A stretch of 64,000 bases of DNA from Patescibacteria group bacterium (GCA_023380635.1 JAMCRP010000001.1:173305-237304); one strand, 5' to 3'; positions 4,066 through 56,299 are shown, counted from the first letter of the stretch. Notes: generated by a model from the letters alone, not told the origin. Numbers and translations are program-made.

Positions 4066-4082
4066 AGGAAAATCGTTTACTT

Positions 4083-5622: not shown

Positions 5623-5639
5623 ACTTGTATTTTAGCAGA

Positions 5640-7759: not shown

Positions 7760-7797
7760 TATTTTCCATCGCTGCCCCCGATGTTCATATTTATTGC

Positions 7798-8685: not shown

Positions 8686-8687
8686 CT

Positions 8688-11070: not shown

Positions 11071-11091
11071 AAGTAGAGTTTAGCAGGAGAA

Positions 11092-11616
11092 CTATAATTC
11101 CTCAATGATCTTCTTACTTTTGATGCGCCGTTCGGCAACGGATTCGACAAAAGAAGTCAGGCCTTCTTTGGGATAGTGACCGAATGGGAGAAAACCAAGC
11201 TGCCAAAGCAGCTTAGCCGTGAATTCCTTTATTTTATTTTCTTCCAGGTTCTTACCCTTCAGTAATTCCTCTAAAAGCCAGTAAACTTGTTCGTGCGGTT
11301 CATTTTCCGGCAGAAGTTTATCTATTACTTCCGCGGCGTAGAAAGCAAAACCAAGAGATTTAAAATTATTCTGCATTACAAATGGAGTTACTGTTTTGGC
11401 TTCGGTAATAATCTCAAAGTTTTTGCCCCGGTGAAGCATGAGTGCCACTTCGTTTAGCGGTTCCAGGTGCGGCGCCCGGCGGCTTTTTATTCTCCTAATA
11501 CCTTTAGCTACCACTGATAACTTGCCCCGTTCCTTGGTAAACAAGGTGATTACCTTATCGCTTTCCCCAAAATTTATGCGTTTGAGAACAATCCCGGTTA
11601 TTTTCGAAGTCTTCAC
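11092..11616 (-). CDS. recO: DNA repair protein RecO (short form)
   Basis: RecO N-terminal OB-fold signature (GIVLKRINFGESDKVITLFTKERGKLSVVAKG). At 174 aa it is shorter than typical RecO proteins. Confidence 0.55.
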   Translation of the reverse strand: MKTSKITGIVLKRINFGESDKVITLFTKERGKLSVVAKGIRRIKSRRAPHLEPLNEVALMLHRGKNFEIITEAKTVTPFVMQNNFKSLGFAFYAAEVIDKLLPENEPHEQVYWLLEELLKGKNLEENKIKEFTAKLLWQLGFLPFGHYPKEGLTSFVESVAERRIKSKKIIEEL

Positions 11617-11630
11617 GAGGAGATTATACC

Positions 11631-13541
11631 CTACAACTTGACGTTGATTTCCTTATCTTCCGTCAGCGCGAACTCCTGCGATTTATTGTTGACGATTACC
11701 TTGTAGTCAATGCCATCTGTCCCCGGTTGTTTTTGAATCAGGAGATTATAGTTGCCGTTCTTTTTGAAATTGCCGGCAACTTTATACTTAATCTGAATTT
11801 TAGCTAAGCCTTCCGGCACGACCGTAAAGAAGCCGTCAACAACCGTGTGGTCCAGATCATCAAAAGTCTGGCTTTTGCTCTCAAAACCCTTAACATCCGT
11901 AATTGTCGCCCCTTTTGGCAGGTAAACTCGCAGGTAGTCCCGGTATATTCCTGCCAGGCAGAGCCCGGAGACCCGTTCCAAAGAACAGTTATCCGCTGCG
12001 TGGGGATAACGGTATTCAAGATTAAGGGTTTCATCGGCGCCGCTGTCAGTTATCGAAACTTCCTTGGTCACTTTAGGAACAATGTAGAGGTTAGACTTGG
12101 CCCCGGCCAGATTGGCGTCATTGACATGAAGGTAGTCACCGTTATAAGTTTTAATCCGGCCGCCGAAATTCAGAGCCTCAATCCCCCGTTGGGCATCTTC
12201 ATTATGAACATAGAATAGAATGTGTTTTTGCAGAGCTTCGCTCATCGCCGCCTGGAAAAGTGGAGCATAAACCTGTTTACTTCCAGTCATGGCTTTTTTC
12301 ATTAAAGATTGCAGAAGAACCCCGATAATATCTTTGCGGCTGCCCCGTTCGTAGGCTTTTGGCTCATCAGCATATTTTTCCAGTTCATAAATTACCATCG
12401 GACAGTCACACTGCGGAACTTTTGTGGTCGTAAAAGTGGTGCCGTAAGTGTCCACCGGCCCCAAAACATTCATTAGACTCACTAGAACATGGGTGTCCAT
12501 GGCAATGATGCCATCAATGTTTTGCTTGGCATTTGAAGTGGCATACAGATCTTCAAAGGTTTTCATGGAAGAGTAATAATCCGGCGAGAAGTTGGCGTCG
12601 CGCATCCGCCAGCCATAAACATTAAGATATCGGGAAATGGGATCCGGAGGAGCAACATGTTTGGTCATCGTGTCATCAAGTTTGTAAATATCGTCGGAAG
12701 TCTGAAGAGAAATTTTGCCCTTGTCTACCTGAAAAATCGCATAGGCGGTAATAAAACCGCCGGTTGGACGCAGTTCCGCATCATTTTGGAACAAAACCAT
12801 GTACTTTTTTGGCTGCTGGGAACCGAGCATTTCCGGCAACTGCTTGACCATCGGCCGCGCTTCGGTCAAAAGATTGTCAGCCATATCAATTGCTTCTTTC
12901 GCCCCCACAATCTGGCTTCTAATCGGTTTTCCCTGAAAGCTTTCCGGGTAACGGTTCGGGTCGACCTGATCCAGAGCCTTGCGCATCGCACTGACTTTAA
13001 CCGCAATCTGGTCAATCTGAGGTTTAACCTTATCCAGGGTTTCCACCATCATCGCAATCCGTTCTTCAGTAGTTCCCCCGGTGAAGCTTCCCTGGCCTTT
13101 AAGACCCAACAAATCAGCGTATGGCTCAATGGCCGTCGCTGTTATCTGAGCGGCCTCCAAACCCTGCTTACCGGCATCCATGAAGGCAAAAGCATCGTTA
13201 GTGTAACCGCCCAGAAGGGGAATAAATCTAGTCCAGCCAATCAGGTTCAGATCCGATTGAACGACCGTTAACTGCTTTTGTGTCGCGACAACAGCGTCTC
13301 TGGTTTTGGCGATATCCTGAGATTTAGCCGCGTCTTTAATTCCCAGCGCCAACCGATAAGTTGTCTTGGCATCGGCGTAAAGGCGAAACAGCGGTAATCC
13401 TAACGCCAGAACTAAAACCACGACGGCAATTATTAATACTAAAAGCCCTTTTTTATGCGGCAGTTTCTTTTCCGTCATAACCGGTTCGGCTTTCGCCACA
13501 AAGGTTTCATCCGGTTTAATTTCTTTGATTTCTTCTTCCAT
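11631..13541 (-). CDS. large N-terminally membrane-anchored extracytoplasmic protein (DUF4012-like, family assignment unverified)
   Basis: 636 aa with one TM (LLVLIIAVVVLVLALGLPLF) and no catalytic motifs recognised. It lies directly upstream of the glycosylation locus. Confidence 0.5.
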   Translation of the reverse strand: MEEEIKEIKPDETFVAKAEPVMTEKKLPHKKGLLVLIIAVVVLVLALGLPLFRLYADAKTTYRLALGIKDAAKSQDIAKTRDAVVATQKQLTVVQSDLNLIGWTRFIPLLGGYTNDAFAFMDAGKQGLEAAQITATAIEPYADLLGLKGQGSFTGGTTEERIAMMVETLDKVKPQIDQIAVKVSAMRKALDQVDPNRYPESFQGKPIRSQIVGAKEAIDMADNLLTEARPMVKQLPEMLGSQQPKKYMVLFQNDAELRPTGGFITAYAIFQVDKGKISLQTSDDIYKLDDTMTKHVAPPDPISRYLNVYGWRMRDANFSPDYYSSMKTFEDLYATSNAKQNIDGIIAMDTHVLVSLMNVLGPVDTYGTTFTTTKVPQCDCPMVIYELEKYADEPKAYERGSRKDIIGVLLQSLMKKAMTGSKQVYAPLFQAAMSEALQKHILFYVHNEDAQRGIEALNFGGRIKTYNGDYLHVNDANLAGAKSNLYIVPKVTKEVSITDSGADETLNLEYRYPHAADNCSLERVSGLCLAGIYRDYLRVYLPKGATITDVKGFESKSQTFDDLDHTVVDGFFTVVPEGLAKIQIKYKVAGNFKKNGNYNLLIQKQPGTDGIDYKVIVNNKSQEFALTEDKEINVKL

Positions 13542-13555: not shown

Positions 13556-14194
13556 TCACCATTTGTTAAACATTGCCAAGGGGGTTTTTAAAACGATCAC
13601 AAAGTCTCTCCAGATAGATTTGTTACGGGCATACGCAGCGTCAAGAGCTACCCGTCGATCCCAAGAAATGGCATTACGACCGCTTGTTTGCCAAGGACCA
13701 GTGAGCCCCGGTTTTACCGAAAGCGCTACATCCAATTCCTTTTTTAAGCCTGGAAAGAATTTTAGTTGCTGAGCAATTTCATCACCAAAAATATCATCAT
13801 TTCGATATGCTCTCGGACCAACCATACTCATGTCGCCCGCAAGAATATTCCAAAGATTAGGTAATTCGTCGAGGCTATATTTTCTAATAAATCTTCCCAC
13901 TCTGGTAATCCTGGGATCCTGGTTCGCCGGGAGTTTCCAACCCTCTTTTTTCTTAAAATTCTTCATGAACTCTCTATCTTTGGCCAGCATCTTGTCAACA
14001 TTGTCAAACATAGATCGGAATTTCCAGATAAAAAATATTTTTCCGTCCTTGCCCACTCGCCTCTGTTTATAAATACATGGACCTGGCGAGTCTAATTTAA
14101 TTGCCAAGGCAATTAGAAGAAGTAAAGGAGAAAACAGGGTAATTACAAACAGTGCCGACAGAATATCCGTGGTTCTTTTAAGAATGTCGTACAT
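13556..14194 (-). CDS. small monotopic phosphoglycosyl transferase (bacterial sugar transferase family, PglC/WbaP C-terminal-like): initiating enzyme
   Basis: Membrane re-entrant helix, then KFRSM...DELPNLWNILAGDMSMVGPRA, the hallmark of PF02397 polyprenyl-phosphate hexose-1-P transferases. Confidence 0.85.
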   Translation of the reverse strand: MYDILKRTTDILSALFVITLFSPLLLLIALAIKLDSPGPCIYKQRRVGKDGKIFFIWKFRSMFDNVDKMLAKDREFMKNFKKKEGWKLPANQDPRITRVGRFIRKYSLDELPNLWNILAGDMSMVGPRAYRNDDIFGDEIAQQLKFFPGLKKELDVALSVKPGLTGPWQTSGRNAISWDRRVALDAAYARNKSIWRDFVIVLKTPLAMFNKW

Positions 14195-15293
14195 ATTCGC
14201 GATATTTTCTTTCGGCAGTTTCCTTAAATTCTTTTTTAAACCTTTCTTTCGAAAACCTCTGTGCGTTAGTATTGCAATCTTCTCTGATTACTCTTACTTC
14301 TCTAATTTCTCGGATTTTCGCGGCCAAGCTCTCCGGTTTCGGCTCGTCAAAAAACCAGCCGGTTTTCCCTTCAACTACCGTTTCCGTCACCCCTCCTTTT
14401 TTATATGCAATTACCGGTTTACCATGGGCCTGGGCCTCCACCGCGACAATGTTAAAATCCTCTTCTCCGGGAATTACGACCGCCCGGCAGTTTTCATAAT
14501 ACCGGTTCAGCTCTTCGTCTGTCAAATAGCCCAAAAACTCTATATTCTTTTTTGCCCTCCCCTTCAATCTGTTTTCTTCTTTCCCTGTCCCGATTATTTT
14601 TAGCGGCAACCCCAGCTGGTTAAACGCGCTAACGGCAATATCCAGCCTTTTTTGCGGCGCCAACCGCGAAACAATTAAATAATATTCCCCGGCGTTTGAG
14701 GCTTGAGATTTGCTTGGGATTTGGGATTTGGGATTTGGGATTTCTACTGGTGGATAGATTACTTCGCTCTCCCGATTGTAGATTCGTTTTATCCTTTCCT
14801 GTACTGCCCGAGAAATAGTCAAGTACTGGTCCGGCCTGGCAGCCACAATCCTGTCGTACCAGCGCAAATACTTCACTAACGGATTACTGACGGCCCGAAA
14901 CCAACCCGGCTTGGCAGAAAAATAATCGTCATGACTATCCCAAAGATAACCGACCGGGTTCAGGCAGTAGCAAAGATGGAAAGTTTCGGGCTTAGTAATG
15001 ATCGCCTTTGCAAATTCATGAGTGACGGAAATTACCAAATCATATTTATCAAAATTGAAGCTTTCAAAGGCTAAACCCATTAAATATGGGTACATTTCGT
15101 GTGCATTTTTAGGAAGCGGTAATTTTTGAAGAAAAGATGTCCTCACATCAAAGCTATCAGCCCATGGCGTCAATCTCTTATCATAGACAGAGGTATAGAG
15201 CGGAGCCTCTGGCCAAATCTCATGCAGGGCCAAAAGTAATCTCTCTGCCCCGCCAAACTTATTTATCCGATCGTAAACTAGAGCTACTTTCAT
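14178..15293 (-). CDS. GT4 glycosyltransferase carrying an internal heptanucleotide repeat
   Basis: N-terminal GGAERLL and C-terminal GT4 motifs. A 7-nt x 4 repeat lies at the inter-domain linker. Confidence 0.8.
   Translation of the reverse strand: MKVALVYDRINKFGGAERLLLALHEIWPEAPLYTSVYDKRLTPWADSFDVRTSFLQKLPLPKNAHEMYPYLMGLAFESFNFDKYDLVISVTHEFAKAIITKPETFHLCYCLNPVGYLWDSHDDYFSAKPGWFRAVSNPLVKYLRWYDRIVAARPDQYLTISRAVQERIKRIYNRESEVIYPPVEIPNPKSQIPSKSQASNAGEYYLIVSRLAPQKRLDIAVSAFNQLGLPLKIIGTGKEENRLKGRAKKNIEFLGYLTDEELNRYYENCRAVVIPGEEDFNIVAVEAQAHGKPVIAYKKGGVTETVVEGKTGWFFDEPKPESLAAKIREIREVRVIREDCNTNAQRFSKERFKKEFKETAERKYREYVRHS
14714..14741. repeat. perfect tandem repeat (TTGGGAT)x4 inside a GT4 CDS (coding strand ATCCCAA x4)
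   Basis: Read directly from the sequence: four perfect 7-nt units, in frame at four copies, encoding IPNPKSQIP. One unit more or less would shift the frame. Confidence 0.9.
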
Positions 15294-16338
15294 AAATTTT
15301 ACGAGTTTCCTTTACGCAGCGTTCCCAACTATATGATTTGGCTCTTTTATATCCACGATCTGTTAGTTCTTTCAATTTTTCCTTATCCTTTAGTGTCTCC
15401 TTTATTACTCTGGCAATATCTTTAGGATCATTTTGATTAAAGTAGACCGCTGCGTCGCCATACACTTCATGAAACACAGGAATATCCGAAACGATTGCCG
15501 GGCAGCCAACACTCATGGCTTCCAATGGAGGGATGCCAAAGCCTTCCATTTTCGAAGAGGTGACAAAAGCTGAGGCGTGGCGATACCAGTCAGCTAGCCG
15601 GCTATTGGGCACTTCACCAATAACTTCGACATATTTTGATTTTGGTAGCCGGGGATAGAAAAATTTATCATTCCCTACCAGAACAAGTTTCATTTTTAAA
15701 ATTTCCGCAGCTTTGATCAAGGTCTCAACATTCTTATGCGGATGGGCATTGCCCACATACAGGAGATAGGGTTTGACCGTTAATGGTTTGCCGGGCTTTG
15801 AAGTGCCTTCCAAAGCTCCTGATTCATAAATCACGGAAATCTTATCGGGATCAGCCTTGTAATGTTTTACTATCTCACTTTTAGCGTCATTGGACAGGGT
15901 AAAAATCCTTTCCGCCCGGAAGACACTAACCCAATTAACCAGATGGTAACCGGTTTTTTTAATGACATACAACCAACCGGGCAGCGTCGACCATTTGCCG
16001 GTTTTATAGTGATCAAATATCAAGTCGTGAATAGTAATGACAAATTTGCCGGGATAAAGAATCGGGAAGGAAAAATAGGGGAAATGTAACAGATCCAATT
16101 TTTCCCGGGAGAATATCCAGGGAAGAAGCAGCTGCTCTCTTAGCGTATGCCAGTGGACATCCGCCAGAACTTTTTTCCATTTCGGGCTGGGCATTTCAAC
16201 CGCCTCGAATTCTTTTTTGGAAAAAAACCAGACATATTCGTTTTCTTTATCGATTTCAGGAAGATATTTAAAAATTGAACGAATGTAGCGACCAACACCA
16301 GTTTCGTTCCACAGCCGGGCGTCAATGCCGATCCTCAT
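15259..16338 (-). CDS. GT4 glycosyltransferase
   Basis: N-terminal MRIGIDARLW...GVGRY and a C-terminal E-x7-E-type GT4 domain (EGFGIPPLEAMSVGCP). Confidence 0.8.
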   Translation of the reverse strand: MRIGIDARLWNETGVGRYIRSIFKYLPEIDKENEYVWFFSKKEFEAVEMPSPKWKKVLADVHWHTLREQLLLPWIFSREKLDLLHFPYFSFPILYPGKFVITIHDLIFDHYKTGKWSTLPGWLYVIKKTGYHLVNWVSVFRAERIFTLSNDAKSEIVKHYKADPDKISVIYESGALEGTSKPGKPLTVKPYLLYVGNAHPHKNVETLIKAAEILKMKLVLVGNDKFFYPRLPKSKYVEVIGEVPNSRLADWYRHASAFVTSSKMEGFGIPPLEAMSVGCPAIVSDIPVFHEVYGDAAVYFNQNDPKDIARVIKETLKDKEKLKELTDRGYKRAKSYSWERCVKETRKIYESSSSLRSDK

Positions 16339-17276
16339 TAGTCCCTCCCCCGCCGTAAATAATTGACCAAACCGATTCCGCCAAGCACCGCGCTGCGAAA
16401 CAGTTCTGGGTACTTTTTGCGATAATGTTTATCGTAAAAAATGCGCATCGCGTCATAACGGGCTTGGTTCCACCTTGCCTGATTGTCAGGATCAACTTTG
16501 GCTACGGATTTTGAAGTAGATTTTAAACCCGAACTGGCTCCCCAATAGTGCATAATTTTAACATCCGGAACAAAATAAACTTTGTAGCCCAGCTCCTTTA
16601 CCCGGTAGCACATCTCGATATCTTCGCCATAGGAAAAATAATCCTCGTCAAACCAACCAATCTTGTCTAATAATTTCTTTCGAATTAGTAAAAATGTCCC
16701 GGACACGGCATCAACCTCATGAACTTTGTCTAAAGGTAAATAGGTAGCCGTATAGCCGGAAAACATTTTGCTTTTGGGAAACAGTTTTGCCAGGCCTGTA
16801 AAATAGGCTAATGAGTTCCAAGGTGTGGGAAACCCCCGGTGAGAAGCATAGTATTGACCACCGTTGGGTAATAGCGTCAGGCAGGTGGAAATGCCGGCAT
16901 CAAGAGTATAGTCCATAAACTGAACCATTCGCTCCAGAGTTCCGGGGTATACTTGCGTGTCGGAATTAAGAAACAGAACATACTCCCCTTTTGCCTTTTC
17001 CCTAGCGCAATTATTACCTCGTGTGAATCCGCAATTTTCTTTGTTTTTTATTAACTCCACTTCCGGAAACTCTTTCTGAACCATTATTACTGAGTTGTCC
17101 GTACTGGCGTTATCGATCACTATCACCTGATAGTCCGGACGCGAGGGTATGGAAGCCAAGCACTGCCGCAACAACGCTTCAGTATTGTAGTTGAGAATAA
17201 TAATTGACAATTTAACTTTTGCCGGCAGTTTCTTCATAGATTTTTTCCAGACTGGTAGAAATTTTTCCCCAGTCAT
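16338..17276 (-). CDS. GT2 glycosyltransferase (GT-A fold)
   Basis: LSIIILNYNTEALLRQCLASI...VIVIDNASTDNS and DxD. Confidence 0.8.
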   Translation of the reverse strand: MTGEKFLPVWKKSMKKLPAKVKLSIIILNYNTEALLRQCLASIPSRPDYQVIVIDNASTDNSVIMVQKEFPEVELIKNKENCGFTRGNNCAREKAKGEYVLFLNSDTQVYPGTLERMVQFMDYTLDAGISTCLTLLPNGGQYYASHRGFPTPWNSLAYFTGLAKLFPKSKMFSGYTATYLPLDKVHEVDAVSGTFLLIRKKLLDKIGWFDEDYFSYGEDIEMCYRVKELGYKVYFVPDVKIMHYWGASSGLKSTSKSVAKVDPDNQARWNQARYDAMRIFYDKHYRKKYPELFRSAVLGGIGLVNYLRRGRD

Positions 17277-18405
17277 AATTATCAGCCACTAACTTTTTAG
17301 CGTTGGTGGACAGACTTTTTGCCAGAGGTTTATTCAGCACTGCTTCTACCGCCAGTTTTGCCAGTTCATTTTTGTTATTACTAATCAGGGCATGCTTCCG
17401 GTCAATCGCCCCAATCCCTTCAATGCCGATTTCCGTGGAGACCACCGGCAAATCTGAGGCCATCGCTTCCAGAATTTTGTATCTGGTCCCCCCGCCGCCA
17501 AAAAGCGGTGCCAGAAGAACTGCTGAGCCCTGATAAGCTGTCCTTATGTCTTCGACATCGTCGGATACGACAATGCTGTCACCAGCCAGATTTTTAATGG
17601 CTTCCGTGGGACTTCGTCCCACAATCCACAAGGTTGCCTCGGGAAGCTTCTTTTTTATTTCGGGCCAGATTTCTCTTACCAGAATTTCCACCGCCTCCCG
17701 GTTCTGTAACCAGTTAAAATTTCCTACAAACAGGAATTTTGTGCCCGTTGATTTACCGTTAAGGATTTTTTTAGTGAAGAAATCCATGTCCACGCCGTTA
17801 GGAACAATACCAACATCCAGTCCCGGCGCCAGTTCTTTCATTTTTTCCTTGTCCGCTTCCGACATGGCCACTACTTTTTTAGCCTTTTGCCAAAAATATT
17901 TTTCCCAATATTTATGTTTAGCGACATCGACATACAACAACGGTTTTACCGGCCAAAGCCGGGAAGTTTGCGTGAAATGTTGGTAGACAAGATATTCAAT
18001 CGTCTGCTCGGCAAGAAGAACCGGAACCGTAGTGGAGGCAATGTTGGGCATAATGTAATAAGTTTCCACATGGATTAGATCATACTTTTCCTTTGCCAGT
18101 TCGGCGGAAATCGCCTCAGTCACCCGGCCGCTACGATACATGTTCACCAAATAGGGATAAGGGGATACCGCGGTTACCAAAAGCTTTTCCGGCGAAGCCC
18201 AGGCTTTTTTCCGGCCAAAGATTTCCACTTTACGGCAATATTTTCGCAATTGGGTTAAATCCGGTTCCGGTTGATCTGTCCGCAAAAAAGAAAACGAAGT
18301 GATTTCATGTTTTCGGGAAAGATTCTTAATTAGATTGAAAGTTCTCGTCTGGCCACCAGAATTTGGTGGATACGGCACGTATGGCGTAAACATCAAAATT
18401 TTCAT
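17212..18405 (-). CDS. GT4 glycosyltransferase
   Basis: MKILMFTPYVPYPPNSGGQTR N-terminus and a GT4 C-terminal domain. Confidence 0.8.
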   Translation of the reverse strand: MKILMFTPYVPYPPNSGGQTRTFNLIKNLSRKHEITSFSFLRTDQPEPDLTQLRKYCRKVEIFGRKKAWASPEKLLVTAVSPYPYLVNMYRSGRVTEAISAELAKEKYDLIHVETYYIMPNIASTTVPVLLAEQTIEYLVYQHFTQTSRLWPVKPLLYVDVAKHKYWEKYFWQKAKKVVAMSEADKEKMKELAPGLDVGIVPNGVDMDFFTKKILNGKSTGTKFLFVGNFNWLQNREAVEILVREIWPEIKKKLPEATLWIVGRSPTEAIKNLAGDSIVVSDDVEDIRTAYQGSAVLLAPLFGGGGTRYKILEAMASDLPVVSTEIGIEGIGAIDRKHALISNNKNELAKLAVEAVLNKPLAKSLSTNAKKLVADNYDWGKISTSLEKIYEETAGKS

Positions 18406-18408
18406 AAC

Positions 18409-21400
18409 TTACTTGGGAAGCTCGCTGTCGGGGACCAGCTGGATAATTACATACTTGTCCGTTTGAGCCAGAAGCTTGTAAGGGTAGAACTTTTTATTGG
18501 TGACGGGTTTGATTTCCCAAACCGGCCACGCGTCAGCCATGATCTTTTTAGTCTGGTCGTCCAAATTAACGCTGACATAATACTGTGCTCCTTCATTTAT
18601 CAATTTATCAAGGCTCCCGTCCATGATCGGCCAACCTTTGCGGTCAGTTTGGTAAAGAAAGGCGGTATCGCCGTCATAGGGCGCAATTACTTTGGCCCGC
18701 CAATCCGTCAGCTCCCGAACTCTCTGCCCGGCTTCGACAATTTCCGGATGATTGATGTTGTAATAGTCTTTGATAAAGTACCAGCCGAAAGCCAGCATGA
18801 ACAAAACAGTAATGACTGCCAGAATTTTGCTCCGGAAATTTTGTGATAGCAGAAAGTCCAGTCCCATGGCAGCCAAAATTACCAGCGAGGGGATAATTAA
18901 AATCTGGTAGTAATCATGCCGGACATTGCCAGTCGCAAAAATAGTTAAATATAAAAGACTGCCGGCAAACAAAACCAGAGGGAAATATTTGTACTTGCCG
19001 GCGGTATTTCTTACCAACCCAAGACCAAGTAAGATCAACCCCCAGTATCCCAAAATTTCCCGTCCGATCCGGTCAGCAAAGATCCAATACCAGAAAGCTC
19101 CTTTAAATCTGATCCCGTCACCGTTAAGCAGCCAGTCGTTGGCCGGTATGCCAGCCGGATACTGCTGCATCCACCAGCGCCAGAGAAGTAATGGCACCAA
19201 TGAAATGATCCCGAAAAGACCTAAAATCGCCCATTGTCGCCAGTTTAAGCCGAATCCCACTAACCAAAAGTAGGCCAAGGGAATCAACAGAAAAGCTGCA
19301 TAAGGTTTAATTAGCAAGGCGACAATCGCCAAAATCAGAGCCAGAACAAGATATCTTTTCCTTTGGGAGAAAACATAGGAACTGGCAAACCACAAGGCCC
19401 CAAGCGAGGCGGCTACCATCGAAGGATCAGGCAAAACGGTCCTGCCGAAATAGATATTGTACGGTAAAACGGCAAATAGACCGGCGGCCAGGTAGGCGAT
19501 CCGCCGGGACAAAAACCGCCGACAGAGCAGAAAAATAAATACTGCTCCAATTGCCGTCGCCAAAGCTGAGGTAAGCCGCCCAGCCGCCTCTACGGTCCAG
19601 TCGGCTAGTATCCGGTCAACAAAAAGTGACGCGGCATTATATATGGGGAACTCCACAAATCTTATACCCAGCGGATTGGGTTTTCCCGAAGCCATGGAAG
19701 AAAGGTCGTCGTATGTCGGATACAGCCAATTAATGGTTTTGTTGCGCAAGAAATCCCGGGTCACGGCCGAAGTATCCGCCTGGCGCCAGGAATGCCAGTC
19801 GGCAATCGGCGAATTAATTTTGTAAGTCCGGATCGACAACGCAACAACTGCGATAACCGCCACCCAGAGAAAATCGGACAACAGAAACTTTTTCACCCGG
19901 GCGAGGAAATTTTTGAAAGAAAATTCAATTCGTAGCGGTTCCATATTCGTCTTAATTTTTTCCCGGGTTAAATAAAGTGACCCAAGAGTCATCCCGGACA
20001 CCCCCCAGAAGACATAAGCAACCTTACTGGATTCGAAAATATCGATCATAGTAGCGTTTACCAAAAGCCCGCCGATCAGGCCGATGAAGCCGGCAACCAG
20101 CGAATATAAGAGCGGATCCCGTATCCCTCCAAGGCTGCGAAATGCGATCCAGGCCATCACTAATAAAGTTCCAAAAAAGGCCGCGAAACCTAAGAATCCG
20201 GTTTCTCCCAAAGCCCGCAGATAGTCATTGTCCGTCGATTCTCCTTCAGTATAGTCATATTTGTTTGCCTGGCTAAGGGTTGCATAGCCTTTTCCCAAAA
20301 GCGGATCCATCTCAAAACCGGCAATCGCCCGGGGCCAGGTCGTATCAAACCTGATACCGGTAGACAAGTCGAACATTAAAGCGTTTTGTGAATAAGTCCT
20401 TTGTGTCGGCACTAAAACCGTAGCTCCACTGGCAGTCTTTTTCGGCATTAAAAGGGGGATTTCGTTTCCGGTGACATCACTGGGCTTCATTGGTGTTGGC
20501 GGCTGGTCAGAAGGAGTCGTTACCGCCGCGATATTATTTTCCAAAAACGTGGCGTTTTGGGTCGGGGCATTGCCGGCAGGCCTTAACAAAATTTCCCGCA
20601 CAGCAGAGAACCTGTCAGCAAACTTAAAAAGAGTCAGAAATCTTGAAGACAGGTCTCCGAACGAGAGCATTAATAAGATACTTAAAAATGCCGCCGCTGC
20701 CCAACGGCTTACCCCCCAACCCAACCCTTTTTTAAAGGTCCAAAGAAAGATAACCACCGACAGCCCCAGCATATATCCAGCAAAGGAAATCCGCGAAGCC
20801 GTAAGAATTAACAGCCAAAAACCTCCGGCCAGAAGCAAGACAATCCCCAATTTTGCCAGCTTATTCTTTAAACCAAAAAGGAAACTCCAGCAAAGCGTCA
20901 GGGCAATCACCAGATACCCGGCCAGGTCGTAGTGCCCGCCGAAAGTCGAAAGAACCCGGGCGTGAGCCGTGAGATATAACCACCAGCCTTTGGCAAATTC
21001 CCGATTCATTGTGGAGAAAGCCGGCCAATACAGATATTTTTGTCCGTAGCCATAGATAATCACGCCCAACAGGGTCAGAAAAAATAGTCCCAGGTATATT
21101 TTCAGCGCCTTCATAGATCTTATTGAAGCAAAGAAAACGAAAAATAAGGAAAAGTACTCGGCCCGGCGCAGCCAGTGCAGGAAGGTTTTTCCGGCAAAAA
21201 GATATTGCAAGGGGACCGTCTGGATAATAAATATTGCCGTGATTACCGAGAGCAATCCGATGACTAAATATCCGATCAGCCCAAGTGAAACGGCGTTAAA
21301 AACAAGTTTGATTTTCCGGCGCAATATCCAGAGCAGAAAAATCACAATGGTCGCCGCCACAAAGAAATCTTCAAGCCTGACTCGAACATTGTAACCGTAC

Positions 21401-21510
21401 AAAATGTCAAACAGCGGCCACTTCGGGTAAAGAGGAATAAAAACCAGCAAGAATCCGGCTAAAACCGCCAGAATATTATTGTCCAGCCAATGCAGCCATT
21501 TGGCTATCAT
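18409..21510 (-). CDS. 1033-aa fusion: O-antigen ligase/polymerase-like (Wzy_C/WaaL) polytopic domain + GT-C (PMT/ArnT-like) polytopic domain + C-terminal soluble domain
   Basis: The N-terminal half carries Wzy_C hallmarks (SRISFAGYMLGL loop; TDNDYLRALGETGFLGF). The second half is a new TM bundle with the periplasmic acidic motif WHSWRQADTSAVTRDF typical of GT-C enzymes. Confidence 0.6.
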   Translation of the reverse strand: MIAKWLHWLDNNILAVLAGFLLVFIPLYPKWPLFDILYGYNVRVRLEDFFVAATIVIFLLWILRRKIKLVFNAVSLGLIGYLVIGLLSVITAIFIIQTVPLQYLFAGKTFLHWLRRAEYFSLFFVFFASIRSMKALKIYLGLFFLTLLGVIIYGYGQKYLYWPAFSTMNREFAKGWWLYLTAHARVLSTFGGHYDLAGYLVIALTLCWSFLFGLKNKLAKLGIVLLLAGGFWLLILTASRISFAGYMLGLSVVIFLWTFKKGLGWGVSRWAAAAFLSILLMLSFGDLSSRFLTLFKFADRFSAVREILLRPAGNAPTQNATFLENNIAAVTTPSDQPPTPMKPSDVTGNEIPLLMPKKTASGATVLVPTQRTYSQNALMFDLSTGIRFDTTWPRAIAGFEMDPLLGKGYATLSQANKYDYTEGESTDNDYLRALGETGFLGFAAFFGTLLVMAWIAFRSLGGIRDPLLYSLVAGFIGLIGGLLVNATMIDIFESSKVAYVFWGVSGMTLGSLYLTREKIKTNMEPLRIEFSFKNFLARVKKFLLSDFLWVAVIAVVALSIRTYKINSPIADWHSWRQADTSAVTRDFLRNKTINWLYPTYDDLSSMASGKPNPLGIRFVEFPIYNAASLFVDRILADWTVEAAGRLTSALATAIGAVFIFLLCRRFLSRRIAYLAAGLFAVLPYNIYFGRTVLPDPSMVAASLGALWFASSYVFSQRKRYLVLALILAIVALLIKPYAAFLLIPLAYFWLVGFGLNWRQWAILGLFGIISLVPLLLWRWWMQQYPAGIPANDWLLNGDGIRFKGAFWYWIFADRIGREILGYWGLILLGLGLVRNTAGKYKYFPLVLFAGSLLYLTIFATGNVRHDYYQILIIPSLVILAAMGLDFLLSQNFRSKILAVITVLFMLAFGWYFIKDYYNINHPEIVEAGQRVRELTDWRAKVIAPYDGDTAFLYQTDRKGWPIMDGSLDKLINEGAQYYVSVNLDDQTKKIMADAWPVWEIKPVTNKKFYPYKLLAQTDKYVIIQLVPDSELPK

Positions 21511-21515: not shown

Positions 21516-22112
21516 TTATTGAAATAAGCGGGCCCGGCCCAGTTTGTAGTGTAAGTCTTTATTTTTTCGCTCTCCTATTTTAACAGCCGGCACCCCTCCG
21601 ACAACAGTCAGTTCCGGCACATCTTTGGTCACCACAGCTCCGGCAGCAATTATCGCTCCGTTACCCACTTTAACTCCAGGCAAAATAATGACGCGCGGGC
21701 CGATAAAAACATAATCGCCGATTTCGACAGGCGCTTCGATTGGGTCAAAGCCCTCGGAAGTAGTATCATGCTCAGAGTTGTAAATCATTACCTGGGAAGC
21801 GATATCGGTATGATTGCCAACAGTTAGTTTGTCCCGACCGTCAAGAAAAGCATGATCGCCAACAATTGAATCTTGCCCAATAGTGATATTTTTTGGTTGG
21901 AAGAATCTGGCCCAGGTATGAATGGTGCTCCCTTCGCCGATTTTTATGCCGGCCAGAGCATAGAAGAAATGCCGAACAAACCTGCAAGGAACCTGACCGA
22001 CACAATTTAAAACCATCAGCTCAAAATCCAGACAATAATTGTAGAAGCGGGTCACAATCTTCGGCCAAGCCTGGCTAAAACTTAAGTTTTTTCCGTATTT
22101 GTCTTTAAACAT
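21516..22112 (-). CDS. hexapeptide-repeat (left-handed beta-helix) acetyltransferase, sugar O-acetyltransferase-like (WcaF/WbbJ type)
   Basis: Tandem hexapeptide repeats (IGDYVFIGPRVIILPGVKVGNGAIIAAGAVV). Confidence 0.75.
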   Translation of the reverse strand: MFKDKYGKNLSFSQAWPKIVTRFYNYCLDFELMVLNCVGQVPCRFVRHFFYALAGIKIGEGSTIHTWARFFQPKNITIGQDSIVGDHAFLDGRDKLTVGNHTDIASQVMIYNSEHDTTSEGFDPIEAPVEIGDYVFIGPRVIILPGVKVGNGAIIAAGAVVTKDVPELTVVGGVPAVKIGERKNKDLHYKLGRARLFQ

Positions 22113-23197: not shown

Positions 23198-24298
23198 TTA
23201 AAACTTTCCAATCGGACCGGTATTTTTCAGAATTATCCAGTGGGTTCGAGACAAGAATTCCAGTCCAACAATTGTCAACCATAAGTATACCGGCAGAACC
23301 GTGGCTCTCAGCCAACTTTCGCTAACTATTTCTCCCACAAAAAGCGCCGGACCAAAAAGTGCCATCGTCAGATAATAGGACGACATGTGATTGGGCAAAA
23401 AATAAAACGGCGCAGCCGCAACTATAAACCAGACCCCGGATAAGAGGAGAATTCTCGCGTGCGGCTGTCTGAGCGAAAAATAACGCATTAAGCCGATTGT
23501 CATCAGGAAAATCAGGACCAAAAATAGCCAGAGAATGACATTGCCAGCTTCGAACCGAACACCCTCAGGCAAATTTAGCCCGCGGAAAAGATACCATCTG
23601 GCTGTCACCAACACCCGGCCACTTAAGGAATAACTATAATCTGAAACCCGCGGCAACCCAATAATCTTCAGTTTGGCCACAAAATAGAACCCGGCCAGAA
23701 CAAAACTGCCAACAAGTCTTTTCGACCAGGAACCGAAATGCCAGCTCAGGACCAGGAAAATAAAGGGTAGGGTCAATGCCAGCTCATTTGAAAAGATCGC
23801 TAAAATCGTTACCAGAAATGTCGCCACAGTTGCGGCAATTCCGGGTTTCAAATAGAGATATGCAGCCAGAAAATAAAACAGGGCACCTAAACTGAAATAC
23901 GAGGTCGCAATCCAAAAAAAGTTCCCAAAAAGTGAAACGTTTAGAGCATAGACAAACGTTCCCGTCATGGCTTTTTCGCGACTTTTTAGAATCTTTTTAA
24001 GGAGCAAATAAACGACGACCACCGTCAAACTATACGCGGCAAATTCAGCAAGATGATAACCAATCGGATTTAGACCAAATAAGTTGCGAGAGAGACCATA
24101 AAAAAGCTGGATGCTTACCGGCCGGTAATGATAAACATCCGGAACGGTGGCCAACCAGTTGCCGGAGCCGGCCATGTCCATGGCAATCCGGTCATCCTGA
24201 AAAAAACGGGCGTTAAAAGAGTCCCGGTAAACAAAGGCCGACAAAAGGATAATGCCACTAAGCAAATAGACTTCCCACTGGTTAAGAAAGTGTTTCAT
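23198..24298 (-). CDS. polytopic membrane protein (about 10 TM) of unknown function, possibly polymerase- or GT-C-like
   Basis: Highly hydrophobic throughout. The start was moved to ATG 24298 (MKHFLNQ) because the longer ORF overlaps the upstream GT4 by 95 nt. Confidence 0.5.
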   Translation of the reverse strand: MKHFLNQWEVYLLSGIILLSAFVYRDSFNARFFQDDRIAMDMAGSGNWLATVPDVYHYRPVSIQLFYGLSRNLFGLNPIGYHLAEFAAYSLTVVVVYLLLKKILKSREKAMTGTFVYALNVSLFGNFFWIATSYFSLGALFYFLAAYLYLKPGIAATVATFLVTILAIFSNELALTLPFIFLVLSWHFGSWSKRLVGSFVLAGFYFVAKLKIIGLPRVSDYSYSLSGRVLVTARWYLFRGLNLPEGVRFEAGNVILWLFLVLIFLMTIGLMRYFSLRQPHARILLLSGVWFIVAAAPFYFLPNHMSSYYLTMALFGPALFVGEIVSESWLRATVLPVYLWLTIVGLEFLSRTHWIILKNTGPIGKF

Positions 24299-25322
24299 AG
24301 GCTTTTGCCGTTTGCCGGGCGGTCTCTTCCCAAGAGAACTTACTGGCCTGGCCGCGGCCCTTCTTAATAAGGGCATCTTTTTTAGATTTGTTCATTTCCA
24401 ATACCGTCTCAATCTTTTCCGCAAGATCGTTTGCATCGAGAGGGTCAATATAAATAGCCGCGTCGCCGCCCACTTCGGGCATGCTGGAAACATTGCTGGT
24501 AATTACCGGACAATCGCAATTGAAGGCTTCTAATATCGGAATTCCGAACCCTTCATAAAGGCTCGGGTACACAAACACCGCGGCGTTAGTGTACAAGTCA
24601 GCCAGCTGATCGTTGGGGACATATCCTAAAAGTTTGACGCCGTTTACTGTTTCTTCTTTCTCGCCCCAACCATATTTTCCGGCAATTACGAGATCGACAT
24701 CCTTAGTTTTTAAGAGTTGATAAGCCTGGATTAGCCGGCCCAGGTTCTTACGTGGTTCTCTGGTTCCGACGGCTAAAATATAAGGCCGCTCGCTTTTTTT
24801 GACTTGCCCCTTCTTCATCGTTGTAGCTTCGTAAATTACTTTAATTTTCTCCTGCGGAATATTGAGAGTTTTCACAATATCTTTTTTGGTCGACTGGGAG
24901 ATAGCAATAACCGCATCCACTTCCTTTTTCACCCATTCGAGTCTTCTTTTTTGCGCGGCGACTATTTTTGGATGTGATGATTGCGGATATTTATAAACGA
25001 CCAGGTCATGAATTGTCGTAATTTTCTTGGCCGTCGTCGGTGGTTGAGTCCAATCAGAAGAATGAAAAACGTCGACCTTTCCGATTAAACTTTCCACCGG
25101 CAGCGTGTGCAGTTGGTTCCATAATATTTCTAGCAGTGTCGGCGGGATCGGAAAAACTTTTGTTTGCGGAAAAACTTTAAATTCTTTCTGCTTGCGAAGA
25201 CTTGCTCCAAACAAAACTAAATCATTATTTGTCTTTAACAGGCTCGTTACGAGGTTTCGGGTATAAATCCCCACCCCCGTTCCGGGAAACGCCATTTGGC
25301 TGATATCTATTCCGACTTTCAT
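24282..25322 (-). CDS. GT4 glycosyltransferase
   Basis: MKVGIDISQMAFPGTGVGIY...EGFGIPILEAF. Confidence 0.8.
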   Translation of the reverse strand: MKVGIDISQMAFPGTGVGIYTRNLVTSLLKTNNDLVLFGASLRKQKEFKVFPQTKVFPIPPTLLEILWNQLHTLPVESLIGKVDVFHSSDWTQPPTTAKKITTIHDLVVYKYPQSSHPKIVAAQKRRLEWVKKEVDAVIAISQSTKKDIVKTLNIPQEKIKVIYEATTMKKGQVKKSERPYILAVGTREPRKNLGRLIQAYQLLKTKDVDLVIAGKYGWGEKEETVNGVKLLGYVPNDQLADLYTNAAVFVYPSLYEGFGIPILEAFNCDCPVITSNVSSMPEVGGDAAIYIDPLDANDLAEKIETVLEMNKSKKDALIKKGRGQASKFSWEETARQTAKAYETLS

Positions 25323-30090: not shown

Positions 30091-30869
30091 ATTCGGAAAC
30101 TCCTCTTAATATTTTTGGCAGGAGTAACTATACTCGCAGCGACTTCATACAGTACCGATCTTCTTGGGAAATCTAATTCTGCAAATACCTCGGGCAATTC
30201 TTGCGATTGAAAAACCAATCCTTTTTCCAACTTTTGAGAACGAATCCCGGCCACTTTCAGATTACTTGAGGATCGTTTCAAATGAGTAGCGTGCAGATAC
30301 CAACTGTCAGAAAACTGCAATTTCTCGTCCCAACCATTTAGAGATTTCCCTTGATATTCATACATCTCTAAGGGATAAACTCCCCCAACAGTCAGGCCGG
30401 GAATGTTTCGGAAACCCCGCATATTAAAATTTCCCCTTCTCCCCTGAAATTGATATTTGCCCGCGTTTTCCGGAAGATAGTGATAGATGTCACCAACCGC
30501 ATTGCGGCTCCGACAATAAACGGCAATCTTTTCCTTAGGCATTGTTTCCAGGTCATGAAGAAACTTTTTAATATTGGTACTAGACCAAACTTCGTCGCCG
30601 TCCAAAAGCATAAAAAAGTCGGTTTTTGTCCGGTCGATCATTTCCTGACGAAACGAGACCAACTTTTCCGGCGAAACCGGACCTTTTTCTTCGAAAAAAA
30701 TTTTTTTATCGTGGATACTATTTATAATGTCCTTTGTCTTATCTGTGGAACCGGTATCATACAAAAGTATCTTATCAACTAAAGGAAGCACCGATTGAAG
30801 AGCAAATCCCACGAATTGGTCTTCGTTTCGAACCAGGCTATGAACGGTGACGGACATATTGCCAAACAA
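30087..30869 (-). CDS. putative GT-A fold glycosyltransferase (GT2-like)
   Basis: LLYDTGSTDKT and the DxD-like LLDGDEVW. Weaker match than the other GT2 genes. Confidence 0.45.
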   Translation of the reverse strand: MFGNMSVTVHSLVRNEDQFVGFALQSVLPLVDKILLYDTGSTDKTKDIINSIHDKKIFFEEKGPVSPEKLVSFRQEMIDRTKTDFFMLLDGDEVWSSTNIKKFLHDLETMPKEKIAVYCRSRNAVGDIYHYLPENAGKYQFQGRRGNFNMRGFRNIPGLTVGGVYPLEMYEYQGKSLNGWDEKLQFSDSWYLHATHLKRSSSNLKVAGIRSQKLEKGLVFQSQELPEVFAELDFPRRSVLYEVAASIVTPAKNIKRSFRI

Positions 30870-32052
30870 CTAAATAATAGGAAAAGTTAAAAATCTGCCC
30901 CAAAATGTAAGCTGTTACCGCTCCCCAAATTCCAAATCGGGGTATTAGCCCGAAATAAAGTGCGATACTCACAATCAGCTGCATCGCCGAACCGGTCAGA
31001 TGCCAAACCGATTTTCCTTTCTGGTACAAGACCACTGCAGTGAAAGGCCCGGAAAGAAAGAAAAAAACCATGCCGACCAGCATCCAATTAAAGGCCGGAA
31101 TTGCTTCCAGATATTTATTGCCAAAAACCAGCGGAATAACGATTCCGGAAACAATAATCGTTGCCAACATTCCCAAACTGGCCAGAAAAGATATCAGAAT
31201 ATAATCCCTAAAAGCCTTCGTCTGTTGGGAAATTGTCGAAAGTTTTGGTGAAAAAACTCCCTCCAGAGCCGCGGCCACCTGGGCGAAAACCGAAAGGAGT
31301 TTTTGGGCCGAACTGTAAATACCCGTCACGGCAGCTCCGCCCAAAAGATAAAGTATGGGGATATCAATCTTTGCGGTTAGCGAGGCGATACCATAAGACA
31401 ACGCCAACCAGCGGCAATAATTAACAACTTCTCTAAGGATTCGGCGGGCACTCGTAAAGTCTAGCAGCTGCCAGCGAAAGTTTATCCACAGTATAGCTAT
31501 CCCCATAATAAAAGCGGCAGCGTTTGCCAGACTAAAAACTGTCAGGGCTGACACTGTCTTCAATAACCCTAAAACAACCAGATAATAGGTCAACGCCAAT
31601 CGGATGGTATTGCCAAAAATGTTGACAAAGACATAGCTCATATATTTCTGTCTGGCCAAAAAACTCTGGGTAACCAAACTGACAAAAAGGAGCGAGACAC
31701 CGACGGCCGCGCCGTAAATTTGCAGATGATCTCCCAAAACTATTGAAGCAACAAAAAAGACCGCTGTAATAATTACTCCGACGGCAATTCTCTGAAGCGT
31801 TGCCAGGGAAAAAATAGCCGGAAACCGCTCCTGCGCCCCGAACTTTACTAAAGCGCTGCCCAGCCCCAGATCTCCCAGTTCTGAAGCCAGGAGCCCCAGG
31901 CCAAGCAGATAGGAAAAATAACCAAAGCCCGAAAGCCCCAAAATCCGGGCGACCAGAATATAGAAAACAAACCCCAGGAGGGAGTTAAAAACCGTCCCCG
32001 CGCTTAAACCGGCACTTTGAAAAAAATTCTGTCTATTGGTTAACCGCCACAT
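30838..32052 (-). CDS. Wzx-type polysaccharide flippase (MOP/PST family)
   Basis: About 12 TM, and the N-terminal pattern AGTVFNSLLGFVFYILVARILGLSGFGYFS typical of Polysacc_synt proteins. Confidence 0.75.
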   Translation of the reverse strand: MWRLTNRQNFFQSAGLSAGTVFNSLLGFVFYILVARILGLSGFGYFSYLLGLGLLASELGDLGLGSALVKFGAQERFPAIFSLATLQRIAVGVIITAVFFVASIVLGDHLQIYGAAVGVSLLFVSLVTQSFLARQKYMSYVFVNIFGNTIRLALTYYLVVLGLLKTVSALTVFSLANAAAFIMGIAILWINFRWQLLDFTSARRILREVVNYCRWLALSYGIASLTAKIDIPILYLLGGAAVTGIYSSAQKLLSVFAQVAAALEGVFSPKLSTISQQTKAFRDYILISFLASLGMLATIIVSGIVIPLVFGNKYLEAIPAFNWMLVGMVFFFLSGPFTAVVLYQKGKSVWHLTGSAMQLIVSIALYFGLIPRFGIWGAVTAYILGQIFNFSYYLVVWQYVRHRS

Positions 32053-55298: not shown

Positions 55299-55625
55299 CT
55301 ATTTCTTGTCCTGAAGCGCGATCTTGCGAACCAGTTCCGTGATTTCGTGGCGAATATCTTCCATGAGAACGTATGCCCGGAACATGAGATAGAAAAGAGT
55401 AACTATCGACGCATAAACAATTAAGTCCACTCCCCGACCGATTCCCAAAAACTGGGCAAAGTGAGTAGTTTCGTTGGGAAAAACTACTACTGTGATCGCC
55501 CCGCTGAAAAGGATAGCCCAAAACCCAAATTCAGCCACCGACACCTTGTGGTCACGTAAACGGAGAAACACCCGGCTAAGGGCAAACAGCAGAGAGACGA
55601 TTAAGATGATCTGAATTATATTCAT
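55299..55625 (-). CDS. small 3-TM membrane protein associated with the DPM1-like GT2 (DUF2304-like or GtrA-like role inferred)
   Basis: 108 aa. Its ATG overlaps the GT2 TGA stop (ATGA). Confidence 0.45.
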   Translation of the reverse strand: MNIIQIILIVSLLFALSRVFLRLRDHKVSVAEFGFWAILFSGAITVVVFPNETTHFAQFLGIGRGVDLIVYASIVTLFYLMFRAYVLMEDIRHEITELVRKIALQDKK

Positions 55626-56299
55626 CGAAATAATCTTAAGAGCATGCCTTTGCCCACGCTTACAGCCTGCCAAAGCGACGGGTCGTTATGCGAATGGTTC
55701 TGGCTGTATTCAGTATAAATCGGTTTAATGGAAATTTCCTTTAACCTTAAATTATTGCGCCTGATTTCCATAAAAAACTCGTTGCTGACTTCCATTCTAT
55801 CAGTTTTAATGGCTATTTTTTCAATCGCTTGTCGGTTGAAAGCCCTAAGCCCAGAAGTCGTATCGGTTGTCCAGATGTGGTACAGCAGTAAAGTCGCAAG
55901 GTTGCTGGCATAATTGACTGCTGTCCGGGCCAACGGCATACCCCGGGGATTAATCAGCCGGCTGCCGATAACGACATCCGCTTGTTCGTTTTTAATTGGT
56001 AATATCAGCTTTTCCAAATCTTTAGCCTTATGTTGCCCGTCTCCATCGAAAGTAATCAATAATTCGTGGCCCTTGCGCCGGGCATACTCAAACCCGGTTC
56101 CCAGCGCCGCCCCCAGACCTCGGTTGACCACATGCCGCAAAACCGTTGCTTTTTTCTCCGCCGCAACCTTACTGGTCTGATCCGTGGAGCCATCGTCTAC
56201 AACCAGAATATCTCTATAACCATAAGATTGGAGATCACCAATCACTTCGCCAATTTTCTTTTCTTCATTATGAGCCGGAACCACAATTAAAGTTTTCAT
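55622..56299 (-). CDS. GT2 polyprenyl-phosphate sugar synthase (DPM1/GtrB-like)
   Basis: LIVVPAHNEEKKIGEVI...ILVVDDGSTDQT...ITFDGDGQH. A soluble GT2 of the dolichyl-P-mannose synthase type. Confidence 0.75.
   Translation of the reverse strand: MKTLIVVPAHNEEKKIGEVIGDLQSYGYRDILVVDDGSTDQTSKVAAEKKATVLRHVVNRGLGAALGTGFEYARRKGHELLITFDGDGQHKAKDLEKLILPIKNEQADVVIGSRLINPRGMPLARTAVNYASNLATLLLYHIWTTDTTSGLRAFNRQAIEKIAIKTDRMEVSNEFFMEIRRNNLRLKEISIKPIYTEYSQNHSHNDPSLWQAVSVGKGMLLRLFR

Follow-up and report, generated by a model that had tools for sequence, protein, structure and literature searches.

The window analysed here, a stretch of 64,000 nucleotides from a Patescibacteria group bacterium (GCA_023380635.1 JAMCRP010000001.1:173305-237304), encodes on its minus strand, at 18409..21510, a single polypeptide of 1033 amino acids in which a module with the fold of the O-antigen ligase WaaL is joined to an ArnT-like glycosyltransferase (GT) of the GT-C type. 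We tentatively propose, with slightly less than even confidence, that this protein is a glycan-assembly enzyme with two active sites at the outer face of the cytoplasmic membrane, serving a Wzx-type surface-glycopolymer pathway of Microgenomates-type members of the Candidate Phyla Radiation (CPR). An earlier note, made from the DNA alone, had described one fused polypeptide of this length, and the open reading frame (ORF) is exactly as described there. A Pfam scan reporting matches to E <= 1, with the curated cut-offs (gathering scores) as domain thresholds, found two families, the sole ones in the protein: Wzy_C (PF04932, O-antigen ligase) at residues 227-446, with 49.0 bits against a cut-off of 31.7 and covering profile positions 3-149 of 149, and PMT_2 at residues 641-777, with 49.8 bits against a cut-off of 26.1. 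The three motifs quoted in the earlier note were located at residues 239 (SRISFAGYMLGL), 428 (NDYLRALGETGFLGF) and 572 (WHSWRQADTSAV). Its attribution of Wzy_C hallmarks to the N-terminal half is confirmed by the first two motifs and by recognition of Wzy_C within residues 1-520, and its second module with a GT-C acidic loop by the third motif, the PMT_2 match and an ArnT-like fold. Homologs are named either 'glycosyltransferase family 39 protein' or 'O-antigen ligase family protein' in the databases, and each of these names covers half of the protein. The parts of the protein referred to below are as follows.

18409..21510, minus strand: fused WaaL-fold and GT-C protein; complete, uninterrupted ORF of 1033 codons with an ATG start
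19966..21510, minus strand: N-terminal module, residues 1-515, 12 transmembrane (TM) helices with the WaaL/O-antigen-ligase fold (AlphaFold2 model of the N-half and Foldseek)
20173..20832, minus strand: Pfam Wzy_C match, residues 227-446, above the curated cut-off
20782..20802, minus strand: 'TASRISF' motif, residues 237-243, with R240 as the equivalent of E. coli WaaL R215 (hhalign and Wzy_C profile position)
20227..20661, minus strand: large extracytoplasmic loop of the N-module, residues 284-428, between TM9 and TM10, ~140-145 residues (predicted secondary structure)
20392..20580, minus strand: Pro/Thr-rich segment, residues 311-373, within the Wzy_C loop; predicted local distance difference test score (pLDDT) < 50
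20197..20241, minus strand: signature 'ESTDNDYLRALGETG', residues 424-438, with Asp427 at the position of the essential His of WaaL/PglL (profile mapping)
19876..19965, minus strand: inter-module linker, residues 516-545, ~30 residues, basic and poorly conserved (placed where split homologs end or begin)
18763..19875, minus strand: C-terminal membrane module, residues 546-916, TM core of ArnT/PMT_2-type GT-C (PMT_2 match and fold matches)
19756..19809, minus strand: motif 'PIADWHSWRQADTSAVTR' of the first extracytoplasmic loop, residues 568-585, with D571 and D579, the GT-C acidic motif (conservation)
19180..19590, minus strand: Pfam PMT_2 match, residues 641-777, above the curated cut-off
18412..18762, minus strand: C-terminal extracytoplasmic alpha/beta domain, residues 917-1033 (secondary structure, pLDDT ~80-90)

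No NCBIfam model matches the fusion protein, and the family profile gave no match by sequence to any PDB chain even at E <= 10, so that a comparison of folds was needed. AlphaFold2 models were built for the N-half, on 20 stand-alone homologs (pLDDT 82, predicted template-modelling score (pTM) 0.83), and for the full-length protein, on 31 homologs (pLDDT 77, pTM 0.58). The sole significant PDB match of the N-half in Foldseek was WaaL (7tpg_B; E 6.3e-7, TMt 0.63); next came the SEDS polymerases FtsW and RodA at TMt ~0.5, in a list that includes 6bas, the RodA D255A mutant. The full-length model matched ArnT (5f15; E 3.9e-6, TMt 0.60) and ALG12 (TMt 0.65), and also ALG9, STT3, PglB, AftA and Pmt4. 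The full-length search gives no matched query region, and these GT-C matches were assigned to the C-half because the N-half alone yields none and PMT_2 sits in the C-half.

In the AlphaFold2 models the large outer loop of the N-module contains R290, the pair S383-x3-R387 and a beta-hairpin. It also holds the Pro/Thr-rich stretch (residues ~311-373) that the earlier note had taken for a periplasmic linker between the halves. This placement has to be revised: the stretch lies upstream of the NDYLRALGETG motif, and three further TM helices of the N-module come after it. The linker proper, residues 516-545, is inferred from the positive-inside rule and the topologies of WaaL and ArnT to be cytoplasmic, and with this placement all invariant charged loops, in either module, fall outside the membrane in the predicted topology. 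It is also the least conserved part of the protein: column identity to the window protein averages 0.37 there, against 0.62 in the N-half and 0.56 in the C-half. The hydrophilic C-terminal domain of the earlier description is present after the last TM helix as an alpha/beta domain with invariant P944, Y945, D948, W960 and P961, and belongs to the usual ArnT-type architecture rather than being an added module.

Conservation of the N-half was counted in 267 sequences from three architectures and that of the C-half in 244 sequences. In the N-half, R45, D48, R115, E118, E171, H193, D195, S383, R387, D427, R432, E436, D490 and K496 were each found in at least 264 of the 267 sequences (all 267 for R387, R115, E171 and D195), the position of R240 was Arg or Lys in 264, and ~20 other charged loop residues were >97% conserved. 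In E. coli WaaL, R215, R288 and H338 are functionally important, and they are conserved in the PglL O-oligosaccharyltransferases (PMC3643930). Alignment with hhalign to a profile of 16 enterobacterial WaaL sequences paired R240 with R215 and R290 with R265 (E 3.4e-4, probability 38%, ending at the variable loop), and a C-terminal slice paired S383-x3-R387 with S284-x3-R288, N428 with N339 and D490 with D389 at very low probability; single E. coli WaaL or ArnT sequences gave weak local alignments. Mapping to Pfam profile coordinates was added as an independent second method because the hhalign alignments were weak. Wzy_C profile position 16 was occupied by R215 in six WaaLs and by R240 in four family members, and position 130 by His in the six WaaLs and by Asp427 or its equivalent in the four family members. 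Across the 267 N-halves this position was Asp in 264 and His in none, within the family signature [D/E]-S-T-D-N-[D/N]-[Y/F/W]-L-R-x-x-G-E-x-G; the equivalent of PglL His349, at the same Asp position, is likewise absent from the family.

The N-module thus shares with WaaL (7TPG) a 12-TM fold, a large outer loop between TM9 and TM10 and a Wzy_C match; it keeps the equivalent of R215 and probably, as R387, that of R288, and its donor is presumed to be linked to undecaprenyl pyrophosphate (Und-PP). It differs in the invariant Asp at the position of H338, in an outer loop of ~140 residues with the Pro/Thr-rich insert, in the extra invariant motifs R45-x-E-D48, STMNRE (166-171) and GGHYD (191-195), and in its covalent attachment to a GT-C enzyme. 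Judged from the replacement of His by an invariant Asp, it would be a distinct catalytic variant and no canonical ligase, which could equally be the polymerase of the pathway, and it does not look decayed. Where the earlier note called the N-half ligase/polymerase-like, the Wzy_C/O-antigen-ligase fold stands and the ligase label is weakened. As a separate observation, the G-G-H-Y-D motif (residues 191-195, nt 20926-20940; H193 in 265 and D195 in 267 of the 267 sequences) lies where TM6 has its outer end. The WaaL alignment shows nothing that corresponds to this motif, which could feed a His into the active site from another position.

The C-half shows a comparable pattern, with D571 and D579 in 243 of 244 sequences and R576, Q577, E620, P622, N862, H865 and Q869 in all 244. 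D571 and D579 follow directly after the first TM helix of the module, the placement expected for the acidic motif of GT-C enzymes. By this measure of conservation both modules are under strong purifying selection. With ArnT (GT83/GT39, 5F15) the C-half shares the PMT_2 match, the fold, the acidic residues in the first outer loop and the C-terminal outer soluble domain, and by likeness its donor is presumed to be a polyprenyl-phosphate sugar. An hhalign alignment to E. coli ArnT placed WRQAD579T on WQPDET and R617-FVE620-F-P622 on RYFEKP (weak, probability 15%), in which the E-x-P of E620 and P622 falls on 'FEKP' and the Lys of the E-K-P motif is Phe in the C-half. The likeness to the oligosaccharyltransferases STT3 and PglB is in fold only: the WWDYG motif is absent (no WWD is present, the nearest sequence being 'RWWMQQ' at residues 778-783). 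Protein O-mannosyltransferases (GT39) differ as well, the window protein having no MIR, PMT_4TMC or PF02366 match at E <= 1; PF02366 matches some homologs, none of them with MIR.

An exhaustive search of 1.84 billion representative proteins identified 2503 relatives. Full-length homologs with both domains make up at least 120 clusters (49-77% identity, ~990-1060 amino acids), and their sources are named Patescibacteria, Microgenomates or Gottesmanbacteria. The best 150 of the 2503 relatives were classified with a separate hidden Markov model (HMM) for each half: 60 of the 150 representatives had only the C-half (~470-500 amino acids), 40 only the N-half (~500-620 amino acids), 43 an N-half fused to an unrelated C-terminus and 2 the fusion of the window type, and 5 were fragments. 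A scan of one genome per species gave at least 575 confirmed stretches and several hundred matching places, the scan having used two patterns so that a single locus may be counted twice. For the best 79 loci of these stretches, all in species-level genomes, the architecture was determined locus by locus: 33 were fused, 39 were split into adjacent genes of one strand, the N gene preceding the C gene, and 7 were cut by contig ends. The split state was found in Woese-, Curtiss-, Roizman-, Beckwith-, Chisholm- and Pacebacteria. In one such pair (L005, genes at 8001-9641 and 9634-11097) a 546-amino-acid Wzy_C gene product is encoded by a gene that overlaps the next gene, for a PMT_2 protein of 487 amino acids, by 8 nt; in another (L006) the two genes lie 21 nt apart.

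In a neighbour-joining analysis of the concatenated halves, the 29 complete fused loci and the window formed one clade with no split member inside, and all fused homologs have an in-frame linker of similar length. The monophyly of the fused forms argues for a single event: on this phylogeny the fusion arose once from an adjacent gene pair and has been stably inherited in a Gottesmanbacteria-like Microgenomates clade. The earlier note had called the fusion unusual, which is right insofar as fused forms occur in a single CPR clade; there fusion is the norm, and the gene pair is found widely among Microgenomates-type CPR bacteria. The idea that the halves work together gained from the comparison, since relatives with separate genes have the halves adjacent, often overlapping, in one operon; as sequence comparisons go, the adjacent pair together with the fusion is good evidence that the two modules act together. 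Because many relatives carry the halves as separate adjacent genes, one sequencing error could have fused them, and an assembly or frameshift artefact had to be considered. The chance of this is negligible: an ORF without interruption was found again in 33 independent species-level genomes and, from varied samples and sources, in >100 clusters at 90% identity, and this recurrence, together with the monophyly of the fused ORF and its in-frame linker of similar length, effectively refutes it. Stop-codon read-through or recoding in the split forms was also examined and rejected, 12 of the 39 split loci having both genes in the same frame with one stop between them, which is the one-third expected by chance.

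Two further observations concern the relatives. The 43 representative clusters with a different C-terminus (P0143, P0144, P0147, P0159, P0175 and others; ~970-1270 amino acids) carry the Asp variant of the N-module followed by a bundle of ~5-7 TM helices and a large soluble domain, which form a family of their own; P0143 has a calcineurin-like phosphoesterase match. This C-terminus gave no HMM match to the GT-C half and a borderline hhalign result (probability 55%) over the first helices. In addition, many matching metagenome-assembled genomes of the TPA type (L008, L010-L013, L015, L021, L022 and others) are titled 'uncultured Gammaproteobacteria bacterium' or 'uncultured Pseudomonadales bacterium'; on a CPR-type gene and operon these titles are probably placeholders or wrong taxonomy. 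Limisphaerales (L046) and Omnitrophota (L070) each appear in the title of a single match, which may be a mis-binned contig.

The fusion gene is part of a compact operon on the minus strand (gaps of 3-5 nt), in the order O-acetyltransferase, fusion, GT4, GT2, GT4, GT4, Bac_transf and DUF4012, followed by recO. Its members besides the fusion gene are listed here.

21516..22112, minus strand: WcaF/WbbJ-like hexapeptide O-acetyltransferase, the upstream operon partner, with its stop 5 nt from the fusion start
17212-18405, minus strand: GT4, first gene of the downstream operon (13556..18405)
16338-17276, minus strand: GT2, downstream operon
15259-16338, minus strand: GT4, downstream operon
14178-15293, minus strand: GT4, downstream operon
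13556-14194, minus strand: polyprenyl glycosylphosphotransferase (Bac_transf), downstream operon
11631..13541, minus strand: DUF4012 protein, last in the conserved operon (domain match; conserved in relatives)

The position of the O-acetyltransferase gene is conserved in L001, L003, L005 and L006, and the downstream order is kept in L001, L003 and L005 at 46-56% identity, whether the protein is fused or split. DUF4012 proteins are enriched in CPR bacteria and tied to exopolysaccharide (EPS) clusters (PMC6744442). A minus-strand glycosylation super-cluster of >50 kb (11631-64000), a large investment for a CPR bacterium with a small genome, has this operon as its proximal part. The super-cluster contains ~17 GT4 and ~8 GT2 genes, methyltransferases and sugar-nucleotide (NDP-sugar) enzymes, together with the following.

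30838..32052, minus strand: Wzx-type flippase (Polysacc_synt; domain match)
43994-45247, minus strand: second Wzx flippase
25319-26596, 32033-33343, 33309-34718, 49246-50964 and 51983-53305, minus strand: five stand-alone PMT_2 GT-C proteins
55622..56299, minus strand: small GT2, best match the polyprenyl-phospho-GalNAc synthase PpgS/AglJ, 148 bits over the full length, below the equivalog cut-off
23198-24376, 35427-36776, 56299-57411, 59725-61221 and 61199-62914: polytopic proteins with no or weak Pfam/NCBIfam assignment (Agl23-like; PTPS_related)

A Polysacc_synt gene also lies upstream in L005. Two small GT2s of the super-cluster have best matches to polyprenyl-phosphate sugar synthases (PpgS, AglJ, ArnC-like), and the one at 55622..56299 is a candidate maker of the polyprenyl-phosphate sugar donor for the GT-C modules. 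Two of the weakly assigned polytopic proteins have a GT-C-like acidic motif after the first helix (FFQDDR, TPDEQ), and some of these unannotated proteins may be GT-C-like. The fusion is the only Wzy_C protein in the window; among the scanned window ORFs of >= 150 amino acids there was no match to LCP, Wzz, a further Wzy_C or a recognisable Wzy family, and the 64 kb hold no lipopolysaccharide (LPS) genes. Two regions of the window stand apart in character. Between ~38000 and 52000 the GC content is 0.36-0.40, compared with 0.43-0.47 elsewhere, and this segment carries the second Wzx gene, GT4s, sugar-nucleotide genes and an FkbM methyltransferase; it may be a glycan cassette of the super-cluster that varies or is exchanged horizontally. 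At 853-8685 lies a division and cell-wall (dcw) block with three Mur-ligase genes, a Glu/Asp racemase, a NUDIX gene, a class B penicillin-binding protein and MraW; recO and a class II tRNA synthetase gene separate this dcw/mur block from the glycan cluster, and both of these neighbours recur in L001.

In the pathway that we propose, the phosphoglycosyl transferase would make an Und-PP-sugar, the cytoplasmic GT4 and GT2 enzymes and the acetyltransferase would complete the oligosaccharide, and Wzx would flip the Und-PP-linked product. The WaaL-fold module would then hold the pyrophosphate via R240, R387 and probably R290 and move the glycan en bloc onto a hydroxyl acceptor, with Asp427, most plausibly as general base, replacing the His. 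The GT-C module would take a polyprenyl-monophosphate sugar from the PpgS/AglJ/ArnC-like GT2s of the super-cluster and glycosylate the same glycan or its acceptor. GT-C enzymes of lactococci and streptococci act on wall glycopolymers outside the membrane, GacL and CsdB by decorating them and WpsJ of lactococci, as proposed, in their anchoring (PMC10821137); the GT-C module could decorate or anchor in the same manner. Fusion would fix a 1:1 ratio of the modules and keep the two steps physically close.

Within this scheme we regard the N-module as somewhat more likely to be the repeat-unit polymerase, that is, to have the Wzy role, than the terminal ligase. A Wzx-type pathway needs a polymerase and no other is recognisable in the window; the His of ligases and O-oligosaccharyltransferases is absent; and the SEDS polymerases, which have the same fold, depend on an essential Asp (Asp255 in RodA, the residue mutated in 6bas). 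Like the N-module, the Wzy and SEDS (RodA/FtsW) enzymes are polytopic; they use an Und-PP-linked donor at the outer face, as the N-module is presumed to do, and the SEDS proteins work with a cognate second enzyme, the class B penicillin-binding protein (bPBP), which resembles the pairing of the N-module with a GT-C enzyme. The gene context, with Wzx, a phosphoglycosyl transferase and GTs, is of the Wzy-dependent type. The protein has the features of the Wzy class (polytopic, a conserved loop Arg, encoded together with these genes), which are permissive and nonspecific. Neither Wzy nor SEDS proteins match the fusion at the sequence level, and the partner in the fusion is a glycosyltransferase, not a transpeptidase.

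Several points weigh against this interpretation. The pTM of the full-length model (0.58) means that no interface between the modules can be taken as established from the prediction, and the pairing of R387 with R288 and the ArnT motif alignment both come from alignments of low probability. The sole close solved structure is that of a ligase, WaaL, and the structures compared include no Wzy_C-type polymerase. The family is also unusually conserved for a Wzy polymerase, at 40-77% identity across candidate phyla. The polytopic proteins at 23198-24376, 35427-36776, 56299-57411 and 59725-61221 could include the true polymerase, and an LCP ligase or another Wzy_C protein may lie outside the 64-kb window.

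Among the alternatives, a role as terminal ligase has to be weighed most seriously, even if we consider it rather unlikely. In that case, which corresponds to the 'ligate-and-decorate' of the earlier note and would be a reasonable mechanism, the N-module would put a finished Und-PP-linked glycan on a glycolipid of the membrane or on some other polymer of the wall. The GT-C module would either supply the sugar that serves as acceptor or decorate the product, and any polymerisation would be left to an unannotated polytopic protein, several of which could act as Wzy. CPR bacteria are presumed to be monoderm and to have no LPS, so that lipid A-core would not be the acceptor. The nearest functional precedent is TacL, the lipoteichoic-acid ligase of Streptococcus pneumoniae, a Wzy_C enzyme of a monoderm that moves an Und-PP-linked polymer to a membrane glycolipid (PMC5727136); it is likened to the fusion by function and by the Wzy_C domain, and differs in being a stand-alone protein of ~400 amino acids with no GT-C partner described in that paper. 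The WaaL match, the best and only significant one of the N-half, speaks for a ligase, as does the high conservation across phyla, which would fit a conserved acceptor, and no LCP-type ligase was found among the scanned window ORFs. The difficulty is the active site, where the His shared by WaaL and PglL has given way to Asp in nearly every sequence and is never retained; nor was an acceptor pathway recognised, and the unannotated membrane proteins show no match to any polymerase family. Protein O-glycosylation, with the N-module as a PglL/PilO-like O-oligosaccharyltransferase, the C-module as a PMT/TfpW-like enzyme and pili or S-layer proteins as targets, is improbable. Enzymes of both classes O-glycosylate proteins elsewhere. 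TfpW, of the GT-C type, glycosylates pilin, and pili and S-layer proteins are prominent in CPR bacteria. The Wzy_C proteins include PglL and PilO (PMC3643930), and the PMT_2 match, the PF02366 matches of some homologs and the presence of Pmt4 among the fold matches would all fit. Against it stand the missing equivalent of PglL His349, the lack of a PglL_A (PF15864) match even at E <= 1, the resemblance of the operon to a polysaccharide repeat-unit pathway, and the fact that no pilin or S-layer gene was recognised beside the gene in the window, L001, L003 or L005.

We also hold it to be very doubtful that one module is non-catalytic, the N-module serving only as an Und-PP-glycan-binding or scaffold subunit for the GT-C enzyme, or the reverse. 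Such a role could account for the replacement of the canonical His, and the fusion of the same N-module to an unrelated C-terminal module in 43 clusters is adaptor-like; however, what takes its place is an Asp, invariant and competent as a general base, in the invariant [D/E]-S-T-D-N motif, and the ~20 further charged loop residues that are >97% conserved form a pattern typical of an active site, not of decay. A more far-reaching idea, to which we give a distinctly low probability, is that the N-module represents a new Asp-dependent branch of the WaaL/Wzy/SEDS fold that is always paired with a second extracytoplasmic enzyme, and that the pair is the core synthase, polymerising and anchoring the main envelope glycopolymer of Microgenomates-type CPR bacteria. 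The cognate partner would then be the ArnT-like GT-C enzyme in the window and the unrelated membrane-plus-soluble module in the 43 clusters; if true, the pair would be a glycopolymer counterpart of the SEDS-bPBP pair.

Returning to the two-site enzyme that we favour, the superfamily of each half is already known. What appear to be new are the pairing of a WaaL-fold with an ArnT-like enzyme, whether fused or translationally coupled, its breadth in one CPR superphylum and the His-to-Asp variant. In the literature on the domain pair, on O-antigen ligases in Patescibacteria/CPR and on ligase-GT-C fusions, no description of the fusion was found, nor was a GT-C fused or translationally coupled to a WaaL-fold enzyme found described for any characterised GT-C. 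The His-to-Asp change means that the Wzy_C label hides a distinct catalytic variant, and the fusion is comparative evidence that a putatively Und-PP-dependent WaaL-fold enzyme and an ArnT-like enzyme presumed to depend on undecaprenyl monophosphate act together. If reconstituted, the fusion might serve glyco-engineering.

The CPR, or Patescibacteria, make up a large share of bacterial diversity and live attached to other cells. To our knowledge, almost nothing is known of their surface glycans. Several hundred species-level genomes share the gene or gene pair, which sits in a conserved operon beside the dcw cluster, and this breadth and context make it a good place to start on the pathway for the main envelope glycopolymer of one CPR superphylum. 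Another multi-domain glycan enzyme would not astonish a specialist; the value of this one is a concrete, testable handle on the CPR envelope glycopolymer.

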